NCBI GenBank assembly: GCA_964483695.1
Contig: CAZACZ010000002.1
Coordinates: 3,171-67,170, forward strand
DNA length: 64,000 nucleotides
Reading direction: 5' to 3'
DNA from: an uncultured bacterium
GTDB lineage: Bacteria; Deinococcota; Deinococci; Deinococcales; Trueperaceae
Shown: positions 18,443-52,080 of the stretch, in pieces
How the letters are laid out: the number at the start of each line of letters is the position of its first letter
How positions within the stretch are numbered: the first letter of the stretch is position 1
Made by a program: the position numbers and the translations under genes
Notes under the pieces: model-generated
The model's input: the letters and a program-made list of their open reading frames with translations, nothing else
Database searches by the model: none
Told to the model about the DNA's origin: nothing

Positions 18443-19459
18443 TCAAGCGGCGGCCGACGAGACCGATGCGACGCCCTGAAACATCCGCCGGTACTCCCGG
18501 GGCGTCAACCCCACGCAACGCTTGAACAGACGGCGGAAGAACGACGGGTCCTCGTAGCCGACCGCGAAGCTGATCTCCTCCACCGGCATGCGGCTGGTCT
18601 CCAACGCTCGTTTCGCCTCCTCTACGCGCAGGTTCTGCAGGTACTCGATGAGCGTCGTTCCGGTGGCCTGTTTGAACCGCCGCTTGAGGGTGCGCTCCGC
18701 CAGGCCGACGTGGCCGGCGACGTCGACGAGCACACGGTCGTCACGCAGGTGGTCCTCGAGGTAGCGCTGCGCCTCGCGCACCGCTGCGTCGCCGGTCGGG
18801 GTGGTGCGCACCAGCGGACGGTACGGTAGCTGCCCCTCGGTGTGGAGCTTGAGGAGGTACACCTTGGCGATGCGCAGCGCCTCGCCCGGGCTGGCATGAC
18901 GAGCGATGATGTGCAGCGCGAGATCGTGCCACGAGCTGGTGCCGCCGGCGGTGACGACGCGCCCCTCCTGGTCGGCGAAGGCGAGCGTCGGGCCCGGCCG
19001 GAACCGCACCTTCGGGTAGCGCGTGCGGAACAGGTCCTCGTAGCCCCAGTGCGAGGTGGCATCGCAACCGTCGAGCAGCCCGGTGGCCGCCAACAGGACC
19101 GCACCCGAGCATGCCGAGTAGACCCACGCCCCGTCGTCGTACCGCCTACGCACCCAAGCGACCACGTCCGGGTAGCGCTCGCCGATGTCCTCGTCCGGCC
19201 CCAACCAGACCTCGGGCAGGATCACGATGTCCGCCGGCGGGTCGTCGGTCACCGCCTCCGCCGGTTGGACCGGGATGCCGAAGCCGCACCGGAAGGGCTC
19301 ACGCGCCGTGGACACGATGCGCACGTCGAACACGTTCTCGCGGACCTCGGTCCGGATCAGCGTCTCCCACACGTTCCCCGTCGCCGACAGCACGTCCACC
19401 ATGCCGTACAGCGCAGACCCCGCGGTCTCGGGAACCGCGACGATGGCGACCTTGGGCAT
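18443..19459 (-). CDS. GlxA-family transcriptional regulator (DJ-1/PfpI-like domain + AraC-type HTH)
   Basis: The N-terminal part is DJ-1/PfpI-like (VAIVAVP...ACSGAVLLAATGLLDG). The C-terminal part is an AraC HTH (FAVGYEDPSFFRRLFKR..G.TP.EYR). ATG 19459 is preceded by GGAGGAG. Confidence 0.8.
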   Translation of the reverse strand: MPKVAIVAVPETAGSALYGMVDVLSATGNVWETLIRTEVRENVFDVRIVSTAREPFRCGFGIPVQPAEAVTDDPPADIVILPEVWLGPDEDIGERYPDVVAWVRRRYDDGAWVYSACSGAVLLAATGLLDGCDATSHWGYEDLFRTRYPKVRFRPGPTLAFADQEGRVVTAGGTSSWHDLALHIIARHASPGEALRIAKVYLLKLHTEGQLPYRPLVRTTPTGDAAVREAQRYLEDHLRDDRVLVDVAGHVGLAERTLKRRFKQATGTTLIEYLQNLRVEEAKRALETSRMPVEEISFAVGYEDPSFFRRLFKRCVGLTPREYRRMFQGVASVSSAAA

Positions 19460-19507
19460 CGTCTCTCCTCCCACGTCTGCCGGCGTCTAGGCACCGGGGC
19501 CGCTCGT

Positions 19508-19537
19508 GGCACGAACGACCCGTTTCGGGCACGAACG
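19508..19537. promoter_or_regulatory. Direct repeat GGCACGAACG x2 (20-nt period) in the glxA-like/osmC-like divergent promoter; candidate operator
   Basis: Exact 10-mers at 19508-19517 and 19528-19537, read from the sequence. The function is inferred only. Confidence 0.3.
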
Positions 19538-19620
19538 CATCTTACGAGAACGCCGCGTGGTCCCTAAGGTATGGGCCGTGCCTCGCCGCCCGAGTGCGAG
19601 CGCAACCAGGAGGAACCAAG

Positions 19621-20217
19621 ATGTCGAACGCAACCGTCGAATCCGCCCGGCCCGCCGCCGCGCCCGCCACCCTGAACGGTCTGAACCTGAAGCAGATGAC
19701 CGACACCGTGGCATTGCTCCGGCAGCAGCCCTCCCTCGCGAAGTTCGAGTTCCGGAACCAGAACCGTTGGGTCGACGGAGGTGAGAACCGCTCTCGCATC
19801 CAAGGCTTCTACGGTGCCGGCCAAGAGGACAGCTCGCGCGCCACCGCCTTCGAGTTCGTGAACGGCGAACCACCCGTGCTGCTCGGCAACAACGAGGGCG
19901 CCAACCCGGTCGAGTACCTACTGCACGCGCTGGCCGGTTGCGTCACGACCACTACGGTGGTGCACGCGACCGCCCGCGGGATCAAGGTCAACCGCATCTC
20001 CACCGAGATCGAAGGCGACCTCGACGTGCAGGGCTTCCTCGCGCTCGACGAGTCGGTGACGCCTGGGTACCAGCAGATCCGCTTCCGCATGGACATCGAT
20101 GCCGATTGCAGCGACGAGGAACTCGAGGACCTGCTCTCCTTCGCCCCCTACCTCTCGCCGGTGTTCAACACCATCACGCGACCGGTGCCGATCGCCTTCG
20201 AACGCCGCCGACGTTGA
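19621..20217 (+). CDS. OsmC/Ohr-family peroxiredoxin-like protein
   Basis: The ATG is preceded by AGGAGGA. It has NPVEYLLHALAGCVTTT and a C-terminal OsmC-like fold sequence. The listed ORF 19111.. is an upstream over-extension. Confidence 0.75.
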   Translation: MSNATVESARPAAAPATLNGLNLKQMTDTVALLRQQPSLAKFEFRNQNRWVDGGENRSRIQGFYGAGQEDSSRATAFEFVNGEPPVLLGNNEGANPVEYLLHALAGCVTTTTVVHATARGIKVNRISTEIEGDLDVQGFLALDESVTPGYQQIRFRMDIDADCSDEELEDLLSFAPYLSPVFNTITRPVPIAFERRRR

Positions 20218-20336: not shown

Positions 20337-20969
20337 TCAGCCAGCGGCGCCCTTCGCCCGCCGCACCTCGTGCAGCAGGAGCCGCGTCACCGCCGCGTGG
20401 CAGGTGGGGCAGGTGCGGTCGGTGCCCAGCACCGGCGCCAGGTCCTCGAAGGTGGTCACGCCGTGGTCGCGGATCGCGCGACGCACGGTGTCGCTGTCCA
20501 GCCGGTGGTGCTCGCACACGTCGTACTGCGGCTTGGCGCGCAGCTTCCAGCGGCCGGGGTCGGCCCGGTACTCGGCGTAGCGCGCCTCCCAGAAGCTGCG
20601 TTCGAACGCCACCATGGCGATCTCGAAGCCGACGGCGTCCGCCGCCAGCGTCTGGCCCGCCGCGACGAGGCGCTCCTCTTCCTCGAGGAACGGCACCTCG
20701 AACGCCACCAGCAGGTCCACGGCGTCGGGCAGCAGCGTGCGCTCGCCCTCCGTGCCCCCGAAGCCGGTGGCGCCGTCCACCGTTCCCGCCAGCGCCCGCA
20801 GCCTCTTCGCCGTCCACGGCGATTCCGGCGCCTCGAGCATCGCGAGCGGCAGCACCAACTCCTTGGCCTCCCGGACCTGGTCCAGGACGGCCTCGATGAA
20901 CGCGCGCTGGGTGCGGATGGCGGCGGTGGCCTCCGCCTGCGCGCCAGGTCGCTCGGCAGCTCCTGGCAT
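20337..20969 (-). CDS. Hydrogenase-cluster-associated hypothetical protein with C-terminal BFD-like (2Fe-2S-type) motif
   Basis: 210-aa ORF. Its ATG overlaps the hypE stop (ATGA at 20967-20971). The C-terminus has C152-x-H154-x32-C187-x2-C190 in a BFD-like context (VRRAIRDHGVTTFEDLAPVLGT..TCPTC). Confidence 0.6.
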   Translation of the reverse strand: MPGAAERPGAQAEATAAIRTQRAFIEAVLDQVREAKELVLPLAMLEAPESPWTAKRLRALAGTVDGATGFGGTEGERTLLPDAVDLLVAFEVPFLEEEERLVAAGQTLAADAVGFEIAMVAFERSFWEARYAEYRADPGRWKLRAKPQYDVCEHHRLDSDTVRRAIRDHGVTTFEDLAPVLGTDRTCPTCHAAVTRLLLHEVRRAKGAAG

Positions 20970-22012
20970 CAGCAGATCCTCGGCAGCTGTTCCTCGATGG
21001 GCATCTCCAGCACCCTCCTGCTGCCGTAGGCGGTCTCGACCAACGCCACCCCCTCGGGCTTCTTCACGATGTCGCCGATGACGGCGGCCTCGCGGCCGAG
21101 CGGGTGCGCCTTCATGGCGCCGAGCGCGGCCTCGGTCTCCTCCGGCGGGACGATCAACAGGACCTTGCCCTCGTTGGCGGCCAGCAGCGGGTCGATGCCG
21201 AGCATCTCGCTGTACTGCGCGACGAGGTCGTGGATCGGAACAGCCACGTCGAACACCCGCAGGCCGAACGGCCGGCGCAGCACCACCTCGTTCGCCACCG
21301 CCGCCAGCCCGCCGCGGGTCACGTCACGCATGAAGCGCACGTTCGGCGCGACCTCCAACACGCGCTCGATCAGGCCGTTCAGCGGCGCCACGTCCGAGAC
21401 GAGATCGACCGAGAGGTCGAGCCCCTCCCGACGCGACATCACCGCGATGCCGTGATCGCCGAGCGTGCCGTTCACCAACACCTTGTCGCCGGGGCGCACG
21501 TGCTCGACGCCGATGCGCACGTGCTCCGGCAAGAACCCGACGCCCGCGGTGGTCACGAAGATGCCGTCGCCCTTGCCGCGCTCGAGCACCTTGGTGTCGC
21601 CCGCCACGATGGCCACGCCGGCCTCGTCGGCGGTCGCTTTCATGGAGCGCACCACCTTCTCGAGCACGGCCATGTCGAAGCCCTCCTCGAGCAGGAACGC
21701 GGCCGTGAGGTAGGCGGGCTTGGCGCCCATCACCGCTAGGTCGTTCACCGTCCCCGCCACCGCCAGGCGACCGATGTCGCCGCCGGGGAAGAACGTCGGC
21801 TTGACGGTGTGCGAGTCGGTGGCGAACGCGATGCGCCCGCCCGGGTTGGCTACGACGGCGGCGTCGGTCAGCTCGCGCAGCGGCGCGCTGCCGAAGGTGG
21901 CCACGAACAGCTCCTCGATCAGCTCGAGGCTGAGCCTGCCGCCCGAACCGTGCGCCAAGCGCACGGTGTCGTAGCGCGAGGCCGGGCCGCTTCGCTCAGA
22001 CGGTCTCGACAT
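20969..22012 (-). CDS. hypE: Hydrogenase maturation protein HypE (carbamoyl dehydratase)
   Basis: AIR-synthase-like sequence ending in the canonical PRIC C-terminus. Start ATG 22012 (MSRPSE). The listed 475-aa ORF is over-extended. Confidence 0.9.
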   Translation of the reverse strand: MSRPSERSGPASRYDTVRLAHGSGGRLSLELIEELFVATFGSAPLRELTDAAVVANPGGRIAFATDSHTVKPTFFPGGDIGRLAVAGTVNDLAVMGAKPAYLTAAFLLEEGFDMAVLEKVVRSMKATADEAGVAIVAGDTKVLERGKGDGIFVTTAGVGFLPEHVRIGVEHVRPGDKVLVNGTLGDHGIAVMSRREGLDLSVDLVSDVAPLNGLIERVLEVAPNVRFMRDVTRGGLAAVANEVVLRRPFGLRVFDVAVPIHDLVAQYSEMLGIDPLLAANEGKVLLIVPPEETEAALGAMKAHPLGREAAVIGDIVKKPEGVALVETAYGSRRVLEMPIEEQLPRIC

Positions 22013-23207
22013 GGAGCCTCTCCTTGTGCATGCCGTAGACGTACCAGGCGCGGCAGGTGCCCTCGTGGCTGACCATGCACGGCCCGTACGGGTTGTCGGG
22101 GGTGCATAGCTTGCCGAACACGCCGCACGCGTCGGGGCGGATCTGCCCGAGGGTGACCTCGGCGCAGCGGCAGCCCTTGGGGTGCTCGGCGCCGCGCAGC
22201 TCGAGCGGATCGAGCTGCCCGGCGAAGCGCCGCGCCGCGCTGAAGCGCTGGTAGGCCGGACGCAGCTTGTACCCCGAGGCGGGGATCTCGGCGATCCCGC
22301 GCCAGCGGATCGGTGCGAGCTCGAACACCTCGTCCAGCTCCTGCTTGGCGCGCTCGTTGCCGTCGTAGCGCACCAGCCGGCCGTAGGGGTTGGCAACGGT
22401 GGGCGCGTCAGCCGCGATCTGCTCCAGCAGCGACAGCACCCCCGCCATCACGTCCACCGGCTCGAAGCCGCCAGAAGCGCACGCGATCCCGCGCCTCGCT
22501 AGGTGCTCGTACACCCGCAGGCCGGTGATGGTGGCGGCGTGCCCAGGCAGCAGGAACCCCTCGATGTCGAAGCCGTCCAGGTCGGGCAGCAAGCTGGTGG
22601 CGGGCGGGGTGTAGTAGTTCGCCTCGATGATGCTGAAGTTCTCCGGCGCACCGCGCTTGAGGAGCGCCGCCACCGCCACCACCGTGGTCTCGAAGCCGAC
22701 CGAGAAGAACACCACCTGCCGTTCGGGGTGGTGCTCGGCCAAGCGCTTGGCGTCGAACACGCTGTACACCGCGCGCACGTCGCCGCCTTGGGCGCGAGCG
22801 TCGAGCAGGCTCATGCGCACGTCGCCGCGCCGTTCGCCCTTCAAGGGGATGCTTCCGGGCACCGCCAGCATGTCGCCGAACGACGCCAGCGTCACGCCGG
22901 GCACGAGCGACAGCTGGATCGCCATGTTGATGTACTCGTTGTCGCACACGCACACCGGGCAGCCGGGGCCCGCCAGGACGCTCACGCTGGACGGCAGCAG
23001 GTCGCGGAGCGCGAAGCGGCCGATCTCGTGCTCGTGCGTCCCGCAGATGTGCATCAGCTTCACCGGCCGCCCGATCTCGGCCGCCACGGCGGCGATCTTC
23101 CGCTGCAGCACTGCCACCAAGCTGGGGTCGCGGTAGGTGTCGGGGCGGTAGCTGTCGGGGCGGTACGACCCGGCGGTCACGGCGCGGACGTCCGCCTCGT
23201 CAGCCAC
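21996..23207 (-). CDS. hypD: Hydrogenase maturation protein HypD
   Basis: Motifs HICGTHEHE, GPGCPVCV and FETT identify HypD. Start tentatively at GTG 23207, overlapping the hypC stop; the ORF is open up to 23264. Confidence 0.85.
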   Translation of the reverse strand: MADEADVRAVTAGSYRPDSYRPDTYRDPSLVAVLQRKIAAVAAEIGRPVKLMHICGTHEHEIGRFALRDLLPSSVSVLAGPGCPVCVCDNEYINMAIQLSLVPGVTLASFGDMLAVPGSIPLKGERRGDVRMSLLDARAQGGDVRAVYSVFDAKRLAEHHPERQVVFFSVGFETTVVAVAALLKRGAPENFSIIEANYYTPPATSLLPDLDGFDIEGFLLPGHAATITGLRVYEHLARRGIACASGGFEPVDVMAGVLSLLEQIAADAPTVANPYGRLVRYDGNERAKQELDEVFELAPIRWRGIAEIPASGYKLRPAYQRFSAARRFAGQLDPLELRGAEHPKGCRCAEVTLGQIRPDACGVFGKLCTPDNPYGPCMVSHEGTCRAWYVYGMHKERLHVETV

Positions 23208-23430
23208 GGGTCTCCGGCTCCAGGTACTCGGCGATGAGCCGTAGGTTCGCCGCCGCTTCTGCACGCTCGATCTTGGCGATCGCGAACCCGGCGTGGACCA
23301 CCACCCAGTCGCCCGGCTTCAGGTCTTCCACCAAGCCGATGAAGCAGTGCTGCGTGCCGTTCCCGAGCCGGATCAGGCAGCTGTCCTGGCTCAGGACGTC
23401 GACGACCTCGTGGGGGATGCCTAGGCACAT
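23200..23430 (-). CDS. hypC: Hydrogenase maturation chaperone HypC/HupF family
   Basis: Starts MCLGIP (essential Cys2). About 76 aa with an OB-fold-like sequence. Confidence 0.85.
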   Translation of the reverse strand: MCLGIPHEVVDVLSQDSCLIRLGNGTQHCFIGLVEDLKPGDWVVVHAGFAIAKIERAEAAANLRLIAEYLEPETRG

Positions 23431-23560
23431 GGGCGCGCTCCCTCGCATGCAGCGGCGGGCCGGGTGGGCCCCTGCGGGCCTCGTCCCCGGTCCTTCGATG
23501 CGTCATGGTGGGCTTCTGCGCCGCAACGCGGCCAGTGCCGAATGTCCTCGCGACCGGCGC

Positions 23561-24301
23561 TCAGCCCGCGCTCGCCGCCAAGCCGGCCGCCTTCTCGCGC
23601 CGGCGATCGCGCAAGTACGCGAGCCACGCGTCAACGCCGTTGCCGGTGCGCGCCGAGAGTTCGAAGACGGTGGCGCCGGGCGCCACCTTGCGCACGTTGT
23701 CGAGCGCGCGCTCGCGGTCGAAGCCGACGGCCTCGGCGATGTCGATCTTGTTGATCACCACGGCGTCGGCGTCCTTGAAGATGCGCGGGTACTTGATGGG
23801 CTTGTCCTCACCCTCGGTGACCGACATCATCGTGACGCGCAGGTCCTCGCCCAAGTCCCAAGCAGCTGGGCACACCAGGTTCCCGACGTTCTCGATCACC
23901 AGCACGTCGAGCCCGGCAAGGTCGAGCTGCTCGACCGCGCGAGCGACCATCTCGGCCTCTAGGTGGCACACCGCGCCGGTGGCGATCTGCACCGACGGCG
24001 CGCCGGCGGCGTTGAGGCGCACCGCGTCGTTGTCGGTCTCGAGGTCGCCCACCACTACTGCCAGCGCCAGCTCGGGCGAGAGCGCACGCACCGTGCGCTC
24101 GAGCAAGGCGGTCTTGCCGGAGCCAGGTGCCGACACCACGTTCAGCACCAGGCACCCGGCGAACGCATCGCGGTTCTGCTTGGCGACCTCGTCGTTGAAC
24201 ACCATCAACGACTTCTGCACTTGCACGACCCGCGCGCCAGGCGCGGCGCCGGTGCCGTGCGGGCTAACGCGTACGTCGCGGGTGGTCGGGTCGGTGGGCA
24301 T
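23561..24301 (-). CDS. hypB: Hydrogenase nickel-incorporation GTPase HypB
   Basis: P-loop SAPGSGKT, metal-site VCHLEA, ENVGNLVCP and NKID motifs. The ATG overlaps the hypA stop (ATGA at 24299-24303). No His-rich or CxxCGC N-terminus. Confidence 0.9.
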   Translation of the reverse strand: MPTDPTTRDVRVSPHGTGAAPGARVVQVQKSLMVFNDEVAKQNRDAFAGCLVLNVVSAPGSGKTALLERTVRALSPELALAVVVGDLETDNDAVRLNAAGAPSVQIATGAVCHLEAEMVARAVEQLDLAGLDVLVIENVGNLVCPAAWDLGEDLRVTMMSVTEGEDKPIKYPRIFKDADAVVINKIDIAEAVGFDRERALDNVRKVAPGATVFELSARTGNGVDAWLAYLRDRRREKAAGLAASAG

Positions 24302-24648
24302 CACGTCACCTCCAGGTGGCTCACGTGCATCTCGCGTCCTTGCCGCAGGTCGGCCGACGGCGTGCCGCAGGTCGGGCACAGGGCGATCCCGAAGCGGTTG
24401 TCGAGTTCGAACGCCGCCTCGCACGTTCGACAGTACGCGATGGCCGGCAGGTACGTCACGTCGAGTCGAGCATGCTCCGCCATGGTGCCTTCGCGCGCGG
24501 CGCCGAAGGCGAACTCGAGCGCTTCCGGCACGACCCCGGCCAGCGCGCCGATCTCGAGGTGGATGGCGTCGATGCGCGACGCGCCGTCCTGGCGCGCCGC
24601 GTCTTCGGCAACGCGCAGCATGCTCAGCACCAGGCTCAGTTCATGCAC
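24301..24648 (-). CDS. hypA: Hydrogenase nickel-insertion protein HypA
   Basis: MHE N-terminus and zinc motifs CRTC...CPTCG. 115 aa. Confidence 0.9.
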   Translation of the reverse strand: MHELSLVLSMLRVAEDAARQDGASRIDAIHLEIGALAGVVPEALEFAFGAAREGTMAEHARLDVTYLPAIAYCRTCEAAFELDNRFGIALCPTCGTPSADLRQGREMHVSHLEVT

Positions 24649-25198
24649 GCCCCAGCACCAACTCCTCGGCGTCCAGCACGTCCTCGGCGCGCACGTCGTG
24701 ACGCACCGAGACGGGCACGGCGCCGTGCCGTTCGAGTTCGGCCAGGACCACGCGCGCGAGCGCCTCCATGCGCCCGCGCACGGCGTCGCCGAGGATCACC
24801 CCGACCTCGCCGGTCTCGAACTGGAGCGGGGCCACGCCGATGGCGACGATCGTCACCTCCGGTAGGTCGCCGTGCAGCTCCATGGCGGTGAGCAGGTCCG
24901 GCACCTCCCACTCGTGCGACGACAGCTTGCCGTACCCCACCTCGGCCGGCACGTGCTTGCGGTCGAAGCGGTACACCTTCCCCGGCGGAGCGGCCACGGC
25001 GTCGACCAACACGACATGATCGTACGCGGCGATGAGGTCGAGCAGGTGCCAGCCGAGGGTGCCGCCGTCGACGAGGTCGACGTGCTCCGGGAACACGTAC
25101 TTCTTGCGCAGGTAGTGCACCAGATGCACGCCCGCTCCTTCGTCCCCGTAGTAGACGTTGCCGACACCCAGGACGAGGAGCGGGCGCGCTTCGCTCAC
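24641..25198 (-). CDS. Hydrogenase maturation endopeptidase (HyaD/HupD-like) for the group-1 enzyme
   Basis: LVLGVGNVYYGDEGAGVH...DGGT...H motifs. The GTG start overlaps the cytochrome b stop (GTGA at 25195-25198). Confidence 0.8.
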   Translation of the reverse strand: MSEARPLLVLGVGNVYYGDEGAGVHLVHYLRKKYVFPEHVDLVDGGTLGWHLLDLIAAYDHVVLVDAVAAPPGKVYRFDRKHVPAEVGYGKLSSHEWEVPDLLTAMELHGDLPEVTIVAIGVAPLQFETGEVGVILGDAVRGRMEALARVVLAELERHGAVPVSVRHDVRAEDVLDAEELVLGRA

Positions 25199-26001
25199 GA
25201 CGCCGTGCCCTTCTTGGTGCCCAGGTCTTCCAGCTCCGCCGGGCGGGCGGCCACGTCGTCGGCGCGGAACCCCGACACCATCGACTCGACCAGCATGTTG
25301 CCGGAGCGGAGGCTGTTCCACACCACCATGTAGAGGTGGATGCCGGTGAAGACCACGAACCACAGCATGGTGAAGCGGTGGATGGCGCGCACGTTGGCGA
25401 GGCCGCCGAGCCACACCTCGATGGGGCGCAGCAGGTTGGCGCCGACGTCGGCCAGGCCGCCGTGCACGTACGGTGACGCCAGCAGGATGCCGGTGACGCT
25501 GATGACCAGCAGCGAAGCGTAGAGCGCGGTGTAGGTCAGGTACTGCAGCGGTCCGTAGTTGCTGTAGGTGAAGTGCGGGTGCTCGCGCTTGAGGAGCAGG
25601 TAGAACCCCAGCTGGTCGCGCCAGGCGCGCCAGTTGAAGAGGATGGGGAACATCCGGACTTCACGCCCCAGCCCCAGCCGGCCGTCGGCGCGCACGAACA
25701 GGAACTGGTAGATGCGCGCCAAGGTGAAGGCCAGCAGCACCCAACCGGCGGCGACGTGCCACCCGCGCACCTGCGCCATGACGAAGTTCGCAGACGTCTC
25801 GGTGAGCAGGTTGCGCGCTAGGAACGGGTTGCCGATGTAGATGCCGGACAGCACCATCCAGATCAGCACGAGGTTGCGGATCCAGTGCGCGATGCGCACG
25901 TAGCGGCCGAAGACGTACACCACCATCTTGGGGCGCCCCGGGCGCTCGAGCACGACCGCGCGCACGCGCCGCGTCCGGCTGGTCTCGGTGGTCACGGTCA
26001 C
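25195..26001 (-). CDS. Ni/Fe-hydrogenase b-type cytochrome subunit (HyaC/HupC-like)
   Basis: Four TM helices with conserved His (RIAHWI, RGWHVAAGW, AIHRF, GIHLY). The GTG start overlaps the large-subunit stop (GTGA at 25998-26001). Confidence 0.8.
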   Translation of the reverse strand: MTVTTETSRTRRVRAVVLERPGRPKMVVYVFGRYVRIAHWIRNLVLIWMVLSGIYIGNPFLARNLLTETSANFVMAQVRGWHVAAGWVLLAFTLARIYQFLFVRADGRLGLGREVRMFPILFNWRAWRDQLGFYLLLKREHPHFTYSNYGPLQYLTYTALYASLLVISVTGILLASPYVHGGLADVGANLLRPIEVWLGGLANVRAIHRFTMLWFVVFTGIHLYMVVWNSLRSGNMLVESMVSGFRADDVAARPAELEDLGTKKGTAS

Positions 26002-27686
26002 ACCTCCACTTCGTGCTGCGCGATCTCCTGCCCGTCGCGGTTGAGCACGTGCACGGCGCACGCCAGGCACGGGTCGAAGGAGTGGATGGTGCGCACCACC
26101 TCGAGCGGGCGGGTCGGGTCGGCCATCGGCTGCCCGACGAGCGACGCCTCGTACGCGCCGCGTTGCTCGCGCGCGTCCTTGGGTCCGGCGTTCCAGGTGG
26201 TCGGCACGATCGCCTGGTAGTTGGCCACGAACCCGCCCTTGACCGTCAGCCAATGGCTGAGGCTGCCGCGCGGCGCTTCGCCCATCGCCCAGCCCTCGCC
26301 GTCCTTGGCGGTGTAGCGGTGGAAGAAGCGGTCGTCGCCGCCCGCCACGCTGCTGGTGAGCTGGCCGATGAGCGTGGGGATGTAGTCACCGACGAGCTTC
26401 GACTCGAGCCCGCGGGCCACGGTGCGGCCTAGGGTGGAGTACCAGAACTCGAACGGGACGCCGAGCTTCTCGGTGTAGCCGTCCATCAGGGTGCGCACGC
26501 GCTCGTTGCCGCCGGCGTACGCCACCAGGAACCGCGCAAGCGGGCCCACCTCGACCGGCATGCCGTCGTAGCGCGGCGCCTTGACCCAGCTGTAGCCGCC
26601 CTCGGTCTTGAGCGTGCCGTCGGCGGCGAACCCTTCGTACGCGGGGTTGGTCTGGCCCTGCAGCGGGTGGAGCGAGGTGGCGCCGCCCTCGTAGGTGTAC
26701 CAGGAGTGCGCGACCTCTTCGCCGATCTTCATCGGATCGACGGGATGCGCCTTGCTCATGTCCCGGTCGATCACCAGGCCGGGCTGCAGCAGGAAGCTGC
26801 TCTGTTCCCACGGCAACTCGTCGAGCGCCATCGCCCCGAAGCTCATGTAGTTGCGCACGCCGGCGCCGTGGCCGGCCAGCGCCTCGTCGCGGTAGCGCCG
26901 CCCGAGCAGCTCGAGGTCGGGCAGGTAGGCGCGCTCCACGAAGTCCATCGTCTTCGCCATCAGGAACTGGTACTCGGCGATGCGGTGCGCGTCGAGCGCG
27001 TCGCGTGCGGCCGTCACGCCCCCCACCACGAGGCTCTGCGGGTGCGGGTTCTTGCCGCCGAAGACGGCGGTCGCCTTGGCGCTGAGGCGCTGGATGGCGA
27101 GGTTGTCGAGGTAGTGCGACGCGAGGATGAGGTTCTCCTCGGGCGTCAGCAGGTACTTCGGGTGGCCCCAGTAGCCGCCCGCGAACGGGCCGAGCTGGCC
27201 GCTCTGCGCGAACGCGCTCAGGCGCTCGAGCACGCCGCGGTAGTGGCTCTCCGAGGCGTTGTAGGCCTGGTCGTGGTACTGCAGCGCGATCTCGGTGGCG
27301 AGGACGGGGTCGGCGCCGAGGGCGCTGATGACGTCCCACCAGTCCATCGAGTGCAGTTGGTAGAAGTGCACGGTGTGGTCGTTGACGTACTGCGCCGCCC
27401 AGATGAGGTTGCGCAGCAGGCGCGCGTTCGGTGGGATGGTCACGCCGTAGGCGCGTTCGGTGGCTTGCACGCCGCGTTCGTAGTGGTGGTAGGTGCACAC
27501 GCCGCAGATGCGCTGGGCGAACAGGCCGACGTCGCGCGGATCGCGCCCTTGCATGATCTTCTCGAAGCCGCGGAAGGCGGTGCTGCTGCTCGAGGCCTCC
27601 TCGACCAGGCCGTCATCGCCGACCTCGATCTCGATCCGCAGGTGCCCCTCGATGCGCGTGATGGGGTCGATCACGTGTTTGGCCAC
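25998..27686 (-). CDS. [NiFe]-hydrogenase large subunit, group 1 (membrane-bound H2-uptake type)
   Basis: PITRIEGH, RICGVCTYHH and C-terminal HSFDPCLACAVH followed by a 15-residue cleavable tail. It is colinear with my recollection of E. coli HyaB. Confidence 0.92.
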   Translation of the reverse strand: MAKHVIDPITRIEGHLRIEIEVGDDGLVEEASSSSTAFRGFEKIMQGRDPRDVGLFAQRICGVCTYHHYERGVQATERAYGVTIPPNARLLRNLIWAAQYVNDHTVHFYQLHSMDWWDVISALGADPVLATEIALQYHDQAYNASESHYRGVLERLSAFAQSGQLGPFAGGYWGHPKYLLTPEENLILASHYLDNLAIQRLSAKATAVFGGKNPHPQSLVVGGVTAARDALDAHRIAEYQFLMAKTMDFVERAYLPDLELLGRRYRDEALAGHGAGVRNYMSFGAMALDELPWEQSSFLLQPGLVIDRDMSKAHPVDPMKIGEEVAHSWYTYEGGATSLHPLQGQTNPAYEGFAADGTLKTEGGYSWVKAPRYDGMPVEVGPLARFLVAYAGGNERVRTLMDGYTEKLGVPFEFWYSTLGRTVARGLESKLVGDYIPTLIGQLTSSVAGGDDRFFHRYTAKDGEGWAMGEAPRGSLSHWLTVKGGFVANYQAIVPTTWNAGPKDAREQRGAYEASLVGQPMADPTRPLEVVRTIHSFDPCLACAVHVLNRDGQEIAQHEVEV

Positions 27687-27689
27687 GGC

Positions 27690-28943
27690 CTACTCCGCCT
27701 CCTGCCCTTTGGCGCTTCGCTGCTCGGTCGCGCTCTTGACGGCCGTCACGCCGGCGTGCGCCACCACGCCCACTGCCGCCGCTCCCAGCGCCACGCGGCC
27801 GATCTTGTCGGCGGTGGCGTCGGTGAAGAACGGCGTCGGGTAGACGCGCCCTGCGAGCGGCACCTCGAACGGGGTGAGCACGTCCCAGAAGCCCGGCTCG
27901 CTGCAGCCGATGCAGCCGTGGCCGGACATGATCGGCCAGGAGGCGCCGTCGTTGTAGCGCACCACGCCGCAGTTGTTGTGCGTCATGGGGCCCTTGCAGC
28001 CGACCTTGAACAGGCACAGCCCTTCCTTCATGCCCTCGATGTCGGTCCAGCCCTCCACGAACTCGCCGGCGTCGAAGTGCCCCCGCCGTTCGCACTTGTC
28101 GTGGATGCGGTCGGCGTACGCCCACAGCGGCCGGCCGAAGGCGTCGAGCGACGGCAGCCGGCCGAACATGGCGTACTCGAGGATGGTGCCGACCACGTTG
28201 GTGCTCGACACCGGGCAGGCGGGCAAGTTGATGACGGGCTTGTGGATGCCGCGGTTGCGCAGGAAGTCGCCGACACCGAGCGCCGTGGTCGGGTTGGGAC
28301 GGGCGGCGGGGATGCCGCCGTAGGACGCGCAACTGCCCGCGGCGATGACGGCGGCGGCGTGCCGGGCGACGTGCTCGACCCGGCTCGCGCCGGTCTCGCC
28401 GGACGGCCCGATGGTGAGGAAGCGCCCGTCGTTGCCTACCGGCACCGAGCCCTCGAACACCGCGATGTACTGGCCGTCGTAGCGATCGATCGATGCCTGC
28501 AGGACGTCCTCGGCCGCCTGGCCCGATGGCGCCATCAGCACCTCGGCGTACTCCAGGCTGAGCAGTTCGAGCACGATGTCGTCGATGCCGGGGTTGGCGT
28601 TGCGGATCAACGCCATGCTGTTGCCGGTGCACGACTGCAGTTCGAGCCACAGGACCGGCAAGCGCGTCGCCAGTTCCTGCGCGCGCGCGACGCGCAGGTC
28701 GAACATCGGCGGCAGCGCCAGCGTCGTGGTCAACACCGCCGACATCTTCAAGAAGTCGCGCCGCGAGATGCCGCGGCGCCTGAGCAGACCCTCGAGGGTG
28801 ATGTCCTTGAGCGGCGGTCTGGCCTCCAGCCGGTCGAGGTGGGCGTCGGCTTCGGCAGCCAGGCGCTCGTAGGATTCGCGTAGGGCACGGTCCAGCGGCG
28901 CGGACGTCGCTTGGGCCGGTGGGTACCTGCGCTGACGAGACAT
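27690..28943 (-). CDS. [NiFe]-hydrogenase small subunit, group 1, Tat-exported with C-terminal membrane anchor
   Basis: The ATG is preceded by GAGGAGG. It has the SRRDFLK twin-arginine motif, Fe-S ligand motifs (SCTGN, GSCAS, ACP, RIHDKC, GLC, VGC, NNC, HGCIGC) and a hydrophobic C-terminal helix. Confidence 0.9.
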   Translation of the reverse strand: MSRQRRYPPAQATSAPLDRALRESYERLAAEADAHLDRLEARPPLKDITLEGLLRRRGISRRDFLKMSAVLTTTLALPPMFDLRVARAQELATRLPVLWLELQSCTGNSMALIRNANPGIDDIVLELLSLEYAEVLMAPSGQAAEDVLQASIDRYDGQYIAVFEGSVPVGNDGRFLTIGPSGETGASRVEHVARHAAAVIAAGSCASYGGIPAARPNPTTALGVGDFLRNRGIHKPVINLPACPVSSTNVVGTILEYAMFGRLPSLDAFGRPLWAYADRIHDKCERRGHFDAGEFVEGWTDIEGMKEGLCLFKVGCKGPMTHNNCGVVRYNDGASWPIMSGHGCIGCSEPGFWDVLTPFEVPLAGRVYPTPFFTDATADKIGRVALGAAAVGVVAHAGVTAVKSATEQRSAKGQEAE

Positions 28944-45130: not shown

Positions 45131-47554
45131 GTGCGCACCGACTCTCGCCACGACGCAGCCGCACCCGAAGCTGGCGCATCCGGCGGTGACGCGCCGGCCG
45201 TCGAGGCGACCGGCGAGGCGGCAGGCGACGCCTGGGCGCACGCCCGCGTACGTGTGCGCGGGGTGGTGCAAGGCGTCGGCTTCCGACCGTTCGTCTACCG
45301 CATCGCCCACGAAGACCGCCTCGCCGGCTGGGTCACGAACGACACCGATGGCGTGCTGATCGACGTGCAGGGTGCTGCGGCGGCCGTCGAGCGCTTCTGC
45401 AGGCGCCTGCGCGACGAGCCGCCGCCGGCCGCCCGGGTGGACGCCGTCGAGGTCGAGGCGCTCGAGCCTGCCGTCGCAGCCGACGCGATCGGCACGGCTC
45501 CCGGGGGCGCAGCCGCCGCCCCACGCTTCGTCATCGCCGAGAGCCGCGCAGGGGGGCAGATCACCACCCTGGTGTCGCCCGACCTGCCGGTCTGCGACGA
45601 CTGCCTTCGCGAGATGCGCGACCCGACCGACCGGCGCTACCGCTACCCGTTCATCAACTGCACCAACTGCGGGCCGCGCTACTCGATCATCGCCGACCTC
45701 CCCTACGACCGGCCCAACACCACCATGCGCGGCTTCACCTTGTGCGAAGCGTGCGCGACCGAGTACCACGACCCCGCCGACCGGCGCTTCCACGCCCAAC
45801 CGGTGGCGTGCCCGGTCTGCGGCCCGGAACTCGTGCTGCTGGACGCCGAAGGGGCCGAACTCGCGCGTGCGGAGGGGGTGGTGGAGCGCGCCGCCGCGCT
45901 CCTGGCCGACGGCTGCATCCTGGCGGTGAAAGGCCTCGGCGGGTACCACCTGGCGTGCGACGCCGCCGACGCCCGGGCGGTGGCGGCGCTGCGGACACGC
46001 AAGTTCCGCAAGGAGAAGCCGTTCGCGGTGATGGCGGCGGACGTAGCCGCGCTCGACGGCGCGGTGGTGCTCTCCGACGTCGACCGGGCGCTGCTCACCG
46101 GTCGCGAACGCCCGGTGGTGCTGGCCCCCAAGGGGTCGCGACCCCTGCCCGACGGCCTGGCGCCCGGCCTGGTCGACCTCGGCGTGATGTTGCCGTACAC
46201 GCCGCTGCAGCACCTCCTGTTCGACGCCGGCGCGCCGCGGCTGCTGGTGATGACCAGCGCCAACCGCAGTTCCGAGCCGATCGCGTACCGCGACGACGAG
46301 GCGAAGGAGCGGCTGCGTGGCATCGCCGACGCCTTCGTGGTCGGCACGCGCCCGATCGAGCGGCGCGTCGACGACTCGGTGGCCACCACCATGGCGGGGC
46401 GCCCGGCGGTGATGCGGCGGGCGCGCGGCTACGCCCCCGCCCCGGTGGCGCGCAGCGACCGCTACGCCGCCCCGATCCTGGGGCTCGGCGCCGGCTTGAA
46501 GAACACCATCACCCTGGCCACCGCGGGCCAGGCGTTCACCAGCCAGCACCTCGGAGACCTCGAGCACTACGACGCGTACGTGGCGTTCGAAGAGACGGTG
46601 CGCGACCTAGCACGCCTGTACCACGTGGACCCGGAGCGCGCGACGGTGGTCGTCGACCTGCATCCCGACTACCCCTCCACCCGCTTCGGGGAGCGGCTAG
46701 CGCCGTCACCTACGCGCGTTCAGCACCACCAGGCGCACGTCGCTTCGGTGCTGGCGGAGCGCGAGGCGTTCGAGACGCGCGTGCTCGGGTTCGCGTTCGA
46801 CGGCGCCGGGCTCGGCGACGACGGCACCATCTGGGGTGGCGAGGTCTTCCACGGTTCGCTGACGGAAGGGTTCGCCCGGGTGGCGCACCTCGCGGCCGCG
46901 GCCTTGCCCGGCGGTGACGCCGCGGCACGCAACCCCGTCCAGGCCGCGGTCGGCTTCCTCCACGCCCTTCCCGCGGAGCGTTGGCAGACGCGCCTACCGG
47001 AGCTGCCCGTACGCGTGGCCAGCGGCATGATCGCCAGCCGCACCAACACCCCGGCCACCACCAGCGTCGGCCGCCTGTTCGACACCGTCGCGGCGCTGTG
47101 CGGCTTCCACCGGCCGATGAGCTACGAGGGGCAGGCGGCGATGTGGCTCGAAGGCTTGGCGCGTGCCGAGGCCGCGTCCGCCGACGGCGCAGGCGCGGGC
47201 CGACGAAGCGCGTACCCGCTCCCCTTCGACGGCCGCTCCTTCGACCATGCACGCTTGCTGGACGCCGTGCTCGACGACCTCGATGCCGGAGCGCCGCCCG
47301 GCCGCGTGGCGCTTCGCTTCCACCTGGCGGTGGCCGCCGCGGTGGCCGAGGCCGCCGCGAGGCTGCACGACGACCACCCGGCCCAGGCGGTAGTGCTGTC
47401 CGGCGGGGTGTGGCAGAACCGCCTGCTGTTCGAACGCACCCACGCCCTCCTCGAGCGCGGCGGGTTCGACGTGTGGTGGAACCAGCGCGTGCCGCTGGGG
47501 GACGGCGGGATCTCGCTCGGGCAGGTCGCTTGGGCGGCCGCGCGGCGCACCTGA
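45131..47554 (+). CDS. hypF: [NiFe]-hydrogenase maturation carbamoyltransferase HypF
   Basis: Acylphosphatase domain (VRGVVQGVGFRPFV), two zinc-finger pairs (CDDC...CTNCGPRYS; CEAC...CPVCGP), and YrdC-like and Kae1-like domains. Confidence 0.92.
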   Translation: MRTDSRHDAAAPEAGASGGDAPAVEATGEAAGDAWAHARVRVRGVVQGVGFRPFVYRIAHEDRLAGWVTNDTDGVLIDVQGAAAAVERFCRRLRDEPPPAARVDAVEVEALEPAVAADAIGTAPGGAAAAPRFVIAESRAGGQITTLVSPDLPVCDDCLREMRDPTDRRYRYPFINCTNCGPRYSIIADLPYDRPNTTMRGFTLCEACATEYHDPADRRFHAQPVACPVCGPELVLLDAEGAELARAEGVVERAAALLADGCILAVKGLGGYHLACDAADARAVAALRTRKFRKEKPFAVMAADVAALDGAVVLSDVDRALLTGRERPVVLAPKGSRPLPDGLAPGLVDLGVMLPYTPLQHLLFDAGAPRLLVMTSANRSSEPIAYRDDEAKERLRGIADAFVVGTRPIERRVDDSVATTMAGRPAVMRRARGYAPAPVARSDRYAAPILGLGAGLKNTITLATAGQAFTSQHLGDLEHYDAYVAFEETVRDLARLYHVDPERATVVVDLHPDYPSTRFGERLAPSPTRVQHHQAHVASVLAEREAFETRVLGFAFDGAGLGDDGTIWGGEVFHGSLTEGFARVAHLAAAALPGGDAAARNPVQAAVGFLHALPAERWQTRLPELPVRVASGMIASRTNTPATTSVGRLFDTVAALCGFHRPMSYEGQAAMWLEGLARAEAASADGAGAGRRSAYPLPFDGRSFDHARLLDAVLDDLDAGAPPGRVALRFHLAVAAAVAEAAARLHDDHPAQAVVLSGGVWQNRLLFERTHALLERGGFDVWWNQRVPLGDGGISLGQVAWAAARRT

Positions 47555-47772
47555 GCGTCGGCCGGCGCACCGTCCACACGCACCGCACCGCCGCCGGCAT
47601 GGTGCGCGCCTAGATCGCCTCGGGCAACGCGTCCGGCACCCCGCCTCGAGGGACGTTCCACCCTGGCCGATTGCGACGTCGGCCCACATACTGGCCGGGA
47701 ACCACGGCCCGTCGCCTCGCGCGGCGAACGGGTCCTCGCGCAGCACGGCACCCGTGGCGGAAGGGTGTCGTG

Positions 47773-48942
47773 ATGATTCCATCTCGCATGGACGCCGGAG
47801 GGCTCGGATCCTTGATCCAAGCGCTCCGCCAGCGTGGCTACCAGGTAGTGGGGCCGACCGTGAAAGACGGCGCCATCGTCCTGGCCGAGATCGACGGGGA
47901 GGAAGACCTGCCGCGCGGCTGGACCGAGGTGCAAGACGCCGGGGCGTACCGCCTGGCGCGGCGCCCCGACGCGGCGCGCTTCGGCTACGCCGTCGGACCT
48001 CACGCCTGGAAGCGCTACCTGCTTCCCTCGACGCTGCGGCTCTGGCGCGCCGAACGCGACGGAGCCGGCGGGTTCTCGCTGGACACGCCCGCACCCACGC
48101 CTGCCTACGCCTTCGTCGGGGTCCGGCCCTGCGACGCGCACGCCATCCGCATCCAGGACCGCGTCGTCACCGGCGGCGCTCACGTCGATCCCGACTACCT
48201 CGAGCGCCGTCGCAAAGCGTTCGTGGTGGCGGTGAACTGCACCGAGCCAGGCGGCACCTGCTTCTGCGCCTCGATGGGAACCGGCCCGCGCCTCGAGCCC
48301 GGCCCGCTCGCGATCGACGCCCCGGACGCCCACGCCGCCGCCTGCGACCTGGTGCTCACCGAGCTGACCACGGGAGACGAGGTGGCGTACCTGGTGGAGG
48401 CCGGCTCGGAGCGCGGGGAGGAGCTCCTCGCTGCACTCCCCATCCGGCCCGCCACGCCCGACGAGGTCGCTGCCGCCGACGCTGCCTTGCAGACCGCCGC
48501 TGCCCGCATGGGGCGCTCGCTCGAGCTCGACGGCCTGGCCCAGATCCTCGCCGACAACCTAGAGCACCCGCGCTGGGACGAGGTGGCGGCGCGCTGCGTC
48601 ACCTGCGGCAACTGCACCCTCGCCTGCCCTACGTGCTTCTGCACCACGGTGCAGGACGTGACCGACCTGACCGGCGCCGCCGAACGCACGCGCGTCTGGG
48701 ACTCGTGCTTCACGCTGGAGTACTCCTACGTCCACGGCGGGCCGGTGCGCCCGTCGAACGCGGCCCGCTACCGCCAGTGGCTCACGCACAAGCTGTCGAC
48801 CTGGGTGGCGCAGTTCGGCACCAACGGCTGCGTCGGGTGCGGCCGCTGCATCACCTGGTGCCCGGTGGGCATCGACATCACCGAGGAAGCCGCCGCCATC
48901 CGCGCCCCGAGGGCAGGAGACCACGATGCACCGCACGCCTGA
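47773..48942 (+). CDS. hyhB: Group 3b [NiFe]-hydrogenase beta subunit (4Fe-4S dicluster protein, sulfhydrogenase HydB-like)
   Basis: [16 protein letters not shown] and [12 protein letters not shown] ferredoxin motifs. It is the first gene of a four-gene set with the gamma, delta and alpha subunits. GGAAGGG RBS. Confidence 0.75.
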
Positions 48943-49825
48943 GGCCGCCCCCGCCCACCCGTCCGCGGCACCCACCGCCCAGCAGGGCCCCGCGTTCCAT
49001 CCCGACCCGATGCGGCCGGAGCCGTTCCGCGTGACCGCGTACCACGACGAGACCGAGGACACGTTCACGCTGCGGCTCGAGCCGGCCACGCAGCGCCAGG
49101 CGCTGCGCTTCCTGCCCGGGCAGTTCACCATGCTCTACCTCTTCGGGGTGGGCGAGGTGCCCATCTCCATCTGCGGCGACCCCGCCGAACCGGAGGTGCT
49201 GGTGCACACCACGCGCGCCGTCGGCGCCGTCACCCGTGCTCTGCACGCGCTGCGGCCCGGCGACGTGGTGGGCGTACGCGGGCCGTTCGGCACCAGCTGG
49301 CCCGTCGAGCTGGCCGAGGGCCGCGACCTGGTGGTCATCGCCGGCGGCATCGGCCTCCCGCCGCTTCGGCCGGCGCTCTACCACGTGCTCGCGCACCGCG
49401 CCCGCTACCGCCGGGTGACGCTGCTGTACGGCAGCCGCACACCGACCGAGTTGCTCTACCCAGGGGAACTTGCGACGTGGGCCGCCTCCGGCGCCATCGA
49501 CGTGCGCACCACCGTCGACCGCGCCGACGAGTGCTGGAGCGGCCGCGTGGGGGTGGTCACGCCGCTCATCCAGGACGCCTCGTTCGACCCGGCGCGCGCC
49601 GTGGCGATGGTGTGCGGCCCGGAGATCATGATCCGTTTCGCCGCCAAGGAGCTGCTGCAGCGCGGCATGGCGGCCTCCGACGTGTTCGTCTCGCTCGAAC
49701 GCAACATGAAGTGCGCGGTGGGCCTCTGCGGCCACTGCCAGCTCGGTCCCTACCTGGTGTGCCGCGACGGTCCGGTGTTCGCCTACGACCGCGTCATGCG
49801 CCTCATGGACGTGCGGGAGGTCTGA
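48926..49825 (+). CDS. hyhG: Group 3b [NiFe]-hydrogenase gamma subunit (FAD/NAD(P)-binding, 2Fe-2S)
   Basis: FNR-like fold motifs ([19 protein letters not shown]) and C-terminal [13 protein letters not shown] after AGGAG, overlapping the hyhB end. Confidence 0.75.
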
Positions 49826-49826
49826 C

Positions 49827-50723
49827 ATGCACGCTTCCTCATCCCCGTCGAACCCCGCCGTCAAGCCGAAGCTCGCGGTGTGGAAGTTCGCCTCCTGCGA
49901 CGGCTGCCAGCTCAGCCTGCTCGACTGCGAGGACGAGTTGCTGGCGGTGGCGGGTGCCGTCGACATCGCCTACTTCCTCGAAGCATCCAGCGCGACGGTG
50001 GAGGGCCCCTACGACGTGTCGCTGGTGGAAGGCTCGGTGTGCACCGCCCACGACGAGGAGCGCATCCAGCAGGTGCGCGCGGCGTCGCGCACGCTCGTCG
50101 CCATCGGCGCTTGCGCCACCGCCGGCGGGATCCAGGCGCTGCGCAACTTCCACGACGCCAAGGAGTTCGCCGCCGCCGTCTACGCCCACCCCGAGGTCCT
50201 CGACGCGCTGGCCACCTCGACGCCGATCTCGGATCACGTGCGGGTCGACCTCGAACTCCGCGGCTGCCCCATCGACAAGCACCAGCTCGTGGAGGTGCTG
50301 GCCGCGACCCTGGCCGGCCGCCGACCGAACCTGCCGCACTACAGCGTCTGCCTCGAGTGCAAGCGCCGGGGCACGCCATGCGTGATGGTCGCGCACGGGA
50401 CCCCGTGCCTCGGCCCGGTGACGCAAGCCGGCTGTGGCGCGATCTGCCCCGCGTACGGCCGGGGCTGCTACGGCTGCTTCGGTCCTATGGAGACGCCGAA
50501 CACGGCGTCGTTGGCGACCACCTTCGCGCGCGACTTGGGCATCGACCAGGGCGCCTGGGTGCGCGCGCTGCACACCTTCAACGCCTACGCCGAACCGTTC
50601 CGCGACGCGGCGGCCGCCTACCCCCGGGCGCCGCGCGCCGGTGCGCGGCGCGGCGACGGCGCGCGGCCCGGTTCCGGCGCCGCACGCGCGTCGTCCGTCA
50701 CGCGGTCGACGAGGAAGGGATGA
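49827..50723 (+). CDS. hyhS: Group 3b [NiFe]-hydrogenase small (delta) subunit
   Basis: [19 protein letters not shown] and a C-terminal Cys cluster (CLECK...C...C..AGCGAICP...GCYGC). GGGAGG RBS. Confidence 0.8.
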
Positions 50724-50727
50724 CGCC

Positions 50728-52080
50728 ATGCCGGGCGACGCACGACCCACGATCCACCCGGAACCACCCGCCCGCGACGGCGCGCCGTCGCCCCAGGCCA
50801 CCCGCACCATCGCAGTCGGCGCGCTGGCGCGCGTCGAAGGCGAAGGCGCGCTCTACGTGAACGTCGACGGCGACGTGGTGCAGGACGTACGGCTCGACAT
50901 CTACGAACCGCCGCGGTTCTTCGAGGCGTTCCTGCGCGGCCGGTCGTACACCGAGCCGCCCGACATCACCGCGCGCATCTGCGGCATCTGCCCGGTGGCG
51001 TACCAGATGAGCGCCAGCCACGCCATCGAGGCCGCCTGCGGCGTGCGCGTGACCGGCCCTCTTCGCGACCTGCGGCGCCTGCTGTACTGCGGCGAGTGGA
51101 TCGAGAGCCACGCGCTTCACATCTACTTGCTGCACGCGCCGGACTTCCTGGGGTACCCCAGCGGCATCCACCTGGCCCAGGACCGACCCGACGAGGTGAA
51201 GCGCGGCTTGGCACTGAAGAAGCTCGGCAACGACCTGATGGTGCTGCTGGGCGGGCGCGAGATCCACCCGATCAACGTGCGCCTCGGCGGCTTCTACCGC
51301 GTCCCCACGCGCGCGCAGCTGCTGGCGCTGCGCCCCCGGCTGGTGGCGGCTCGCGACGACGCGCTGGCTACGGTGCGCTGGGTGGCGGGCTTCGCGTTCC
51401 CGTCGTTCGAGCGCGACTACACCTTCGCCGCCCTGCATCACCCGCACGAGTACCCGATGAACGAGGGCCGCATGGTCACCAACCGTGGGCTCGACATCGC
51501 CGTGGACGCGTTCGAGGAGCACTTCCACGAGGAGCACGTGCCGCACTCCACGGCGCTGCACGCCCTGGTGGACGGCCAGCCGTACCTGGTGGGTCCGTTG
51601 GCGCGCTACGCGCTGGCCTTCGAGCAGCTCTCGCCGCTGGCCAAGGAAGCCGCGCTGGAAGCAGGACTCGGCCGCGTGTGCCGCAACCCGTTCCAGAGCA
51701 TCGTGGTGCGCGCCGTCGAGATGCTCTACGCCTGCGACGAGGCGCTGCGGATCGTCGATGCGTACGAGCCGCCAGCCGCACCGTACGTGGACGTGCCGCC
51801 GCGCGCCGGCCGAGGCCACGCCTGCACCGAGGCGCCCCGCGGCACCCTCTACCACCGCTACACGCTGGACGCCACCGGCACCATCGTGGACGCCACCATC
51901 GTCCCGCCGACGGCGCAGAGCCAACGCAGCATCGAAGGCGACCTGCACGGCGTGGTCGAGGCCCACCTGCACGAGCAGAACGACCGCCTGCAGCACCTGT
52001 GCGAGCAGGCCATCCGCAACCACGACCCGTGCATCTCCTGCTCGACGCACTTCCTGAGGCTGGAGGTGGAGCGCGCTTGA
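50728..52080 (+). CDS. hyhL: Group 3b [NiFe]-hydrogenase large (alpha) subunit
   Basis: [16 protein letters not shown] and C-terminal DPCISCSTH plus a 9-residue tail. Start ATG 50728 after GAGGAAGGG. The listed ORF 50434.. is over-extended. Confidence 0.88.

Follow-up and report, generated by a model that had tools for sequence, protein, structure and literature searches.

A candidate enzyme-specific maturation factor with a Cys3His BFD-like domain in the group-1 [NiFe] hydrogenase operon of Trueperaceae

Whether a [NiFe] hydrogenase can be built in the presence of air and then exported depends on enzyme-specific maturation factors; to our knowledge, detailed accounts of such factors exist only for a few model enzymes of proteobacteria. 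The HoxR/HupI rubredoxin, HyaE/HoxO, HyaF/HoxQ and HybE are small cytoplasmic proteins encoded together with membrane-bound group-1 hydrogenases; they are dispensable for hydrogenases of other types and work on the precursor of the small subunit or on its Fe-S clusters, Tat proofreading being a further task of the proteobacterial group-1-specific helpers. Accessory proteins of another kind are HucE and HhyE, putative Fe-S proteins of the mycobacterial Huc and Hhy hydrogenases that are required for H2 oxidation and combine a NifU-like domain with Rieske-type C-x-H-x15-18-C-x2-C or rubredoxin-like motifs (PMC6883350). Here we analyse a protein of 210 amino acids, ORF210, that is encoded behind hypE in the operon of a cytochrome-b-linked group-1 [NiFe] hydrogenase (Table 1). 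The gene lies in a stretch of 64,000 nucleotides, hereafter the window, from the genome of an uncultured member of the Trueperaceae (Deinococcota).

Table 1. Coordinates of ORF210, its putative ligand codons and the genes discussed in the text (window positions, unless a locus, L, is named).
Feature	Position	Strand	Remark
ORF210, whole gene, 210-aa hydrogenase-operon protein	20337..20969	minus	helical N-domain and Cys3His BFD-like C-domain
All-helical N-domain, residues 1-145	20535..20969	minus	acidic, pI 4.7; residues 1-16 are a genus-specific extension
BFD-like C-domain, residues 146-210	20340..20534	minus	PF04324 match; basic, pI 8.0
C152 codon, first putative ligand	20514..20516 (TGC at 20516-20514)	minus	invariant
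H154 codon	20508..20510 (CAC)	minus	variable position, adjoins H155
H155 codon, putative second ligand	20505..20507 (CAC)	minus	invariant His
C187-P-T-C190, C-x2-C pair	20400..20411	minus	invariant
hypE, directly upstream of ORF210	20969..22012	minus	start approximate; plausibly coupled translationally to ORF210
hypD, hypC, hypB, hypA	21996..24648	minus	operon without hypF in this genus
Interval between hypB and hypC	23448-23561		hypF absent
Maturation endopeptidase, cytochrome b, large and small subunits of the group-1 [NiFe] hydrogenase	24641..28943	minus	
Group-1 large subunit	25998-27686	minus	co-occurs with ORF210
Group-1 small subunit	27690-28943	minus	Tat signal
Small-subunit extension before the twin-arginine motif	28770-28943	minus	also in L005, L010, L013, L018, L019, L022, L025, L040, L049, L050
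OsmC-like gene	19111-20217	+	convergent with ORF210
hypF	45131-47554	+	about 24 kb from the hyp operon
Second hydrogenase with hypF	45131-52080	+	looks like a four-subunit group-3b type
Second hydrogenase, FAD/NAD/Fe-S subunit	48926-49825	+	
Second hydrogenase, Oxidored_q6 small subunit	49827-50723	+	
Second hydrogenase, NiFe large subunit	inside 50434-52080	+	
DUF302-like gene	L025 8517-8900; L026 1085-1498; L029 2677-3087; L040 10085-10492; L041 4032-4388; L043 178-570		
HemN-like gene	L002/L003 10576-11907; L015 4384-5337; L017 10564-11634; L020 5097-6425; L001 20000-20560		

A two-domain protein encoded behind hypE

The 210-aa reading frame proposed in the first-pass annotation is confirmed as a real gene on the minus strand. 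Its ATG at 20969 has its A in common with the TGA of hypE and is preceded by GAGGA 7 nt upstream, and its own stop codon is the TGA at 20337-20339. Translational coupling to hypE, which had also been proposed, is plausible, but the junction (...ATC TGC TGA TGC CAG GAG... on the coding strand) is a TGATG with one base in common and not the 4-nt ATGA that had been described. Because the OsmC-like gene is convergent with it, ORF210 closes the hydrogenase transcription unit; a simple scan of the space between these two genes found no terminator-like hairpin. The protein has neither a signal peptide nor a transmembrane segment, no hydrophobic segment at all (maximal 19-residue Kyte-Doolittle mean 1.28), and three cysteines only, at positions 152, 187 and 190. 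The gene had been called unannotated, which is true of the raw window; its relatives, though, already carry labels, '(2Fe-2S)-binding protein' at NCBI and 'bacterioferritin-associated ferredoxin' at JGI. The JGI label is an over-annotation, since the NCBIfam model of Bfd proper (NF007803) scores only 12.8 bits against ORF210 (E 0.11; cut-off 75 bits) and the protein has 210 residues in two domains. ORF210 is not an orthologue of Bfd, which is a stand-alone protein of about 64 aa, and no link to bacterioferritin was seen.

The C-terminal domain matches the Pfam family Fer2_BFD (PF04324) over residues 151-198 (profile positions 2-48 of 50, E 3.2e-5) with 24.6 bits, marginally below the gathering score of 26 bits. 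The same profile matches 18 of 23 diverse family members at E <= 0.01 (best E 2.5e-8), one relative (P0055) exceeding the gathering score with 28.5 bits, and when the family profile was compared with all PDB sequences the sole matches were to Pseudomonas aeruginosa Bfd (E 0.12-0.7). Because PF04324 recognises diverse relatives and Bfd alone was retrieved from the PDB, homology to BFD-like [2Fe-2S] domains is, on sequence grounds, sound at the level of the family, in line with the original reading of the C-terminus as BFD-like. NCBIfam gave weak local matches of the C-domain to the central segment of NifU (TIGR02000, positions 136-192) and to the BFD repeat of NirB, while the NifU N-domain, Rieske and rubredoxin had no match to ORF210 in Pfam or NCBIfam. 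With Bfd (PDB 4E6K, 6E6R), the NifU centre and the NirB repeats the domain has in common a length of about 50 residues, ligand pairs about 31 residues apart, the internal pattern ..VRRAIR..G.t.fe.la..lGt...C..C and a predicted order of loop, helix, helix, loop, helix. It differs from them in being fused behind a novel domain of 145 residues and in its second putative ligand, which is His at +3 (C-x2-H) instead of Cys at +2 (C-x-C).

This substitution is a property of the whole family. The signature C-x2-H-x30/31-C-x2-C, in ORF210 C152-x2-H155-x31-C187-x2-C190, was found in 94 of 97 relatives, the remaining three being truncated or frameshifted, and 87 of these 94 have exactly three cysteines. 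Its four residues remain unchanged in members of three Deinococcota families that are as little as about 30% identical, and the residue after C190 is always basic (H, R or K; H191 in ORF210). A Cys3His motif conserved in this way is far beyond chance. The canonical four-Cys set of PF04324, C-x-C...C-x2-C, does not occur: none of the 94 has Cys at the second position. In an ungapped alignment with P. aeruginosa Bfd, C152 corresponds to C4, position 154 to C6 and H155 to Q7, and position 154 is occupied among the 94 relatives by E, Q, V, A, L, N, R, H, T, K, D or I, never by C.

The motif had been described as C152-x-H154-x32-C187-x2-C190, at 20400-20516, an interval bounded exactly by the codons of C152 and C190. 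The three cysteines are indeed invariant, but H154 is not supported as the second ligand, its position being variable even in close relatives (one that is 87% identical reads C-E-Q-H), and the invariant residue is H155. ORF210 happens to have two adjacent histidines, so the C-x-H reading was a coincidence; the idea behind it, that His stands in for the second Cys, holds in the form of a conserved Cys3His set that includes H155.

The N-terminal domain had been said to match nothing recognisable, and this proved right for Pfam, NCBIfam and the folds in the PDB. Residues invariant throughout the family are F24, P41, P51, P93, E98, F115, E123 and W127, and ORF210 contains the conserved motifs PW(T/S), (F/Y)E(L/V)P(F/L)..EE and FE..FW. 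Together with its place in a group-1 [NiFe]/hyp operon, these helical motifs make ORF210 a member of an unnamed family of hydrogenase-operon N-domains. AlphaFold2 modelled the whole protein with a pLDDT of 90.7 and a pTM of 0.77 (alignment of 29 sequences), predicting six helices across residues 8-136, followed by a C-domain made of a short bridge or loop with the C/H pair, a helix (159-169), a second helix (174-181), a loop with the CxxC and a final helix (188-209); the C-domain modelled in isolation had a pLDDT of 82.1. Foldseek searches of the PDB returned nothing with E < 1 for the whole model, so that the N-domain has no recognisable solved relative, and folds like those of TorD/DmsD/NarJ, HybE or ferritin are not supported for it. 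The search with the isolated C-domain was equally empty, Bfd included. Of the two checks that had been suggested for the BFD reading, the HMM search gave a PF04324 match just under the gathering score, and the structure predictions retrieved no BFD fold; what speaks for the predicted fold is the sequence and the succession of modelled elements, not the fold search.

What would the Cys3His site bind? It may hold a single metal, either a structural Zn or a Ni or Fe handled by a metallochaperone, in a BFD fold that has degenerated into a zinc-knuckle-like module. Cys3His is a common Zn ligand set, the canonical second Cys has been lost in all 94 members with the spacing changed to C-x2-H, Pfam gives a weak match to Zn_ribbon_8 (E 0.2), and hypA and hypB, close by, encode Ni- and Zn-handling proteins. 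On the other side, the BFD sequence pattern and the x31 spacing have been retained, and mitoNEET and IscR are familiar examples of a Cys3His-bound [2Fe-2S] cluster in a different fold. We consider a mononuclear Zn or Ni site rather unlikely, yet an alternative to be taken seriously.

The operon and its distribution in Deinococcota

Run exhaustively against 1.84 billion representative proteins, a family profile returned just 29 matches, about 20 of which are true members, full-length or partial, and a homologue search gave 46 clusters of homologues. In a first survey of 25 loci (21 GTDB genomes and four metagenome contigs), the homologue (hereafter the target) directly follows hypE in 24 loci and directly follows hypC in one Meiothermus locus. 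Where it is linked to hypE, the order of genes is small subunit, large subunit, cytochrome b, endopeptidase, hypA, hypB, (hypF), hypC, hypD, hypE, target; in further Thermaceae-type loci the target comes after hypC or hypE and is followed by a gene for a DUF302-like protein. Every homologue that we examined sits in the hyp section of this same type of operon.

The surveyed loci vary in several other respects. Between hypB and hypC, hypF is absent in the genus of the window and in several other Trueperaceae (L005, L006, L010, L013, L014, L018, L019, L022-L024); all Thermaceae-type loci have it there, as do other Trueperaceae. The hypF of the window lies instead beside its second hydrogenase. 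An apparent frameshift in hypE was seen in L022 (8986-9994, two overlapping matches), and the hypE of another genome (G247:C6:508586-509602) has one in-frame TAG. In some loci the target is directly followed on its 3' side by a HemN-like radical SAM gene (NF006385, 'coproporphyrinogen III oxidase family', 482 bits), which overlaps it by 4 nt in L002/L003 and is separated from it by an IS in L001. A heme chaperone that serves the cytochrome b subunit is one possible role for its product. We rejected this gene as an obligate partner of the target, because the genome of the window has no close orthologue (best match 35% identity over part of the length).

Across 364 Deinococcota genomes, the target was found in 33 and the large subunit of this enzyme (counted at E <= 1e-60) in 32, with 31 genomes having both; the carriers are related, and these counts are not independent. 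The mismatches concern one genome that is 72% complete, one in 470 contigs and a third, G192. In G192 the target is frameshifted, no small or large subunit was found and cytochrome b is only partial, so the operon appears to be decaying; its hyp locus (L042, G192:C60, 6324-9841) lacks hypF and has the target split by the frameshift, with hypA, hypB, hypC and the DUF302-like gene remaining. The co-distribution of target and enzyme spans three families and 11 genera.

The Hyp machinery itself is distributed differently, with hypE present in 66 of the 364 genomes. One genus (g27) is represented by ten genomes, nine of them with hypE; neither the target nor this large subunit occurs in any of the ten. 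The protease-hypABFCDE operon stops at hypE in the two genomes of this genus whose loci were read (G328 and G330), a universal stress protein gene being next after hypE in G330 (L046), and the three genomes checked encode other [NiFe] large subunits of about 484 aa. The target therefore goes with this group-1 enzyme and not with the Hyp machinery, and the proposal that it is dedicated to this hydrogenase is borne out by its operon position and its near-perfect co-distribution with the large subunit.

This pattern bears on whether ORF210 is a general Hyp helper, that is, a donor of electrons or iron to HypC/HypD/HypE for the Fe(CN)2CO unit that would work by Bfd-like iron mobilisation. Such a role would fit the apparent translational coupling of the target to hypE (in Trueperaceae) or hypC (in Thermaceae-type loci), the acidic N-domain with its many conserved Glu, and the retrieval of Bfd alone from the PDB sequences, and small domains of the BFD-like type work as electron-transfer modules. 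The target is missing, however, from half of the Deinococcota genomes that have hypE, among them close relatives whose hypE is 67-73% identical to that of the window and which have a full protease-hypABFCDE operon and other [NiFe] hydrogenases. The group-3b-like cluster with hypF in the window has no second copy of the target, and the score of Bfd proper is, as given above, far below its cut-off. That hyp operons working for other hydrogenases do without the target speaks against a general donor to HypCD, and we regard this role as quite improbable.

Relatives in Bacillota and the DUF302-like partner

Two representatives matched the N-domain only. They belong to a set of Bacillota MAG proteins of 272-277 aa annotated as 'hypothetical protein' (P0067/P0117/P0118), and profile-profile comparison (hhalign) of the N-domains of the ORF210 family and of these proteins gave a probability of 98.5% (E 2.8e-15). 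Like ORF210, they have a homologous N-domain and are encoded in the same type of operon, the large subunit of which is 54% identical to that of the window over its full length. They differ in that the gene lies between those for the endopeptidase and hypA, and in that an apparently DUF302-like C-domain takes the place of the BFD domain. This C-terminal half resembles the hyp-linked DUF302-like proteins in a weak profile-profile match (E 1.3e-3). A BFD domain of the ORF210 type is absent from the Bacillota N-domain proteins and from the rest of that genome. The Bacillota form is confined to an order of three genomes, that of the MAG carrying L049; a sample of 300 further genomes of the phylum did not contain it.

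In Thermaceae-type loci a DUF302-like gene of about 136 aa always comes after the target, and in one case (P0061; L031 662-1603) the two are fused into one protein. The only canonical DUF302 gene in the genome of the window lies elsewhere, on contig C51.

Since the Bacillota relatives keep the N-domain without the BFD domain, the helical domain, with its DUF302-like partner, is the conserved module. The Cys3His BFD domain is an addition made in Deinococcota, and as the Bacillota relatives lack it, the core function can do without the redox module.

Proposed role and comparison with other hydrogenase helpers

We propose that ORF210 is a cytoplasmic maturation factor specific to one lineage of Tat-exported, cytochrome-b-linked group-1 [NiFe] hydrogenases, a reading to which we assign a probability of about one half. 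It is favoured because the protein appears to be cytoplasmic and is linked to the enzyme, because the classical helpers are missing, and because group-1 enzymes elsewhere have helpers of this kind. The genome of the window (98.7% complete) encodes no HupH/HyaF, HybE or rubredoxin, and its HyaE-like match is sub-threshold only. The location of ORF210 in the hyp section, and not beside the small subunit, counts against this reading, as do the empty fold searches, the marginally low PF04324 score, the Bacillota relatives that lack a BFD domain, the short N-terminal region of the small subunit in locus L043 and the relatedness of the genomes behind the co-distribution.

From sequence and gene context we infer cluster binding, a cytoplasmic site of action, a partner and a step that would be affected. 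The acidic helical N-domain would dock onto a hydrogenase-specific partner, most plausibly the precursor of the small subunit or another pre-export intermediate, and the C-domain would hold a [2Fe-2S] cluster through C152, H155, C187 and C190. In these aerobic bacteria, the BFD domain would then give or take electrons, or a labile cluster, while the enzyme is being assembled. Judging from other Cys3His clusters, such a centre might have a higher potential and be more labile than a Cys4 site.

In both phyla, the twin arginines of the small subunit itself are preceded by an extension, acidic and helix-like, with the consensus ..E.Y..LA.EAD..LD.LE...: it is conserved across the Trueperaceae and Thermaceae-type loci, and a similar one is found in the Bacillota operons with the N-domain protein. 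One Thermaceae-type locus, L043, carries the target, yet the N-terminal region of its small subunit is no more than short. The N-domain could represent a new class of small-subunit precursor chaperone, of the Tat proofreading type, which reads this acidic extension, with the Cys3His BFD domain and the DUF302-like protein serving as a redox or cluster-loading checkpoint before export; we find this scheme unlikely.

It is also conceivable that ORF210 regulates the expression or assembly of the hydrogenase as a sensor of redox state, iron or O2, with a labile Cys3His centre as the sensor and the helical domain binding a regulator. Sensory or labile behaviour is frequent among Cys3His [2Fe-2S] clusters, IscR and mitoNEET being examples, no other regulator gene was seen in the operon, and Pfam reports a weak match of the helix-turn-helix type (HTH_Tnp_ISL3, E 0.014). 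There is, however, no DNA-binding domain above noise, the gene appears to be coupled translationally among maturation genes, and the Bacillota relatives lack the sensor domain, which leaves regulation very improbable. Least probable of all is that ORF210 is the physiological electron-transfer partner of the enzyme, as proposed for HucE/HhyE: its gene belongs to a hydrogenase operon, it is a putative Fe-S protein, and a His ligand would raise the potential of its cluster, an argument made for HucE (PMC6883350), but a presumably cytoplasmic protein without signal peptide, membrane segment, NifU-like or Rieske domain, encoded in the maturation and not the structural section and having Bacillota relatives without an Fe-S domain, is hard to reconcile with electron transfer from a Tat-exported enzyme that has its own cytochrome b subunit.

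If ORF210 is an enzyme-specific maturation factor, an enzyme lineage found in aerobic Deinococcota and in a small order of Bacillota has one compact, uncharacterised protein instead of HyaE/F, HybE and HoxR. Should ORF210 hold a Cys3His [2Fe-2S] cluster, it would be the first case of this ligand set in a BFD fold, and ORF210 would be a new Fe-S player in hydrogenase biogenesis. Heterologous expression of these hydrogenases would have to take ORF210 into account, although the practical reach is limited because the family is narrow.

In a literature search we found no paper on the ORF210 protein, the Cys3His variant of BFD or the N-domain, in agreement with the first-pass annotation, which knew of no described protein of this kind. 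HucE and HhyE resemble it in being lineage-specific, putative Fe-S proteins with Cys/His motifs that are encoded in hydrogenase operons; unlike ORF210, they belong to the structural operons of hydrogenases without cytochrome b. No homology to them was detected, the TIGR02000 match covering just the central BFD-like segment of NifU. With HoxR/HupI, HyaE/HoxO, HyaF/HoxQ and HybE, to which ORF210 has no relationship in sequence or fold, the likeness is one of functional analogy only. Set beside these systems, the ORF210 family is a known domain type in a new variant, fused to a new domain, and forms a narrow but coherent family of hydrogenase accessory proteins.
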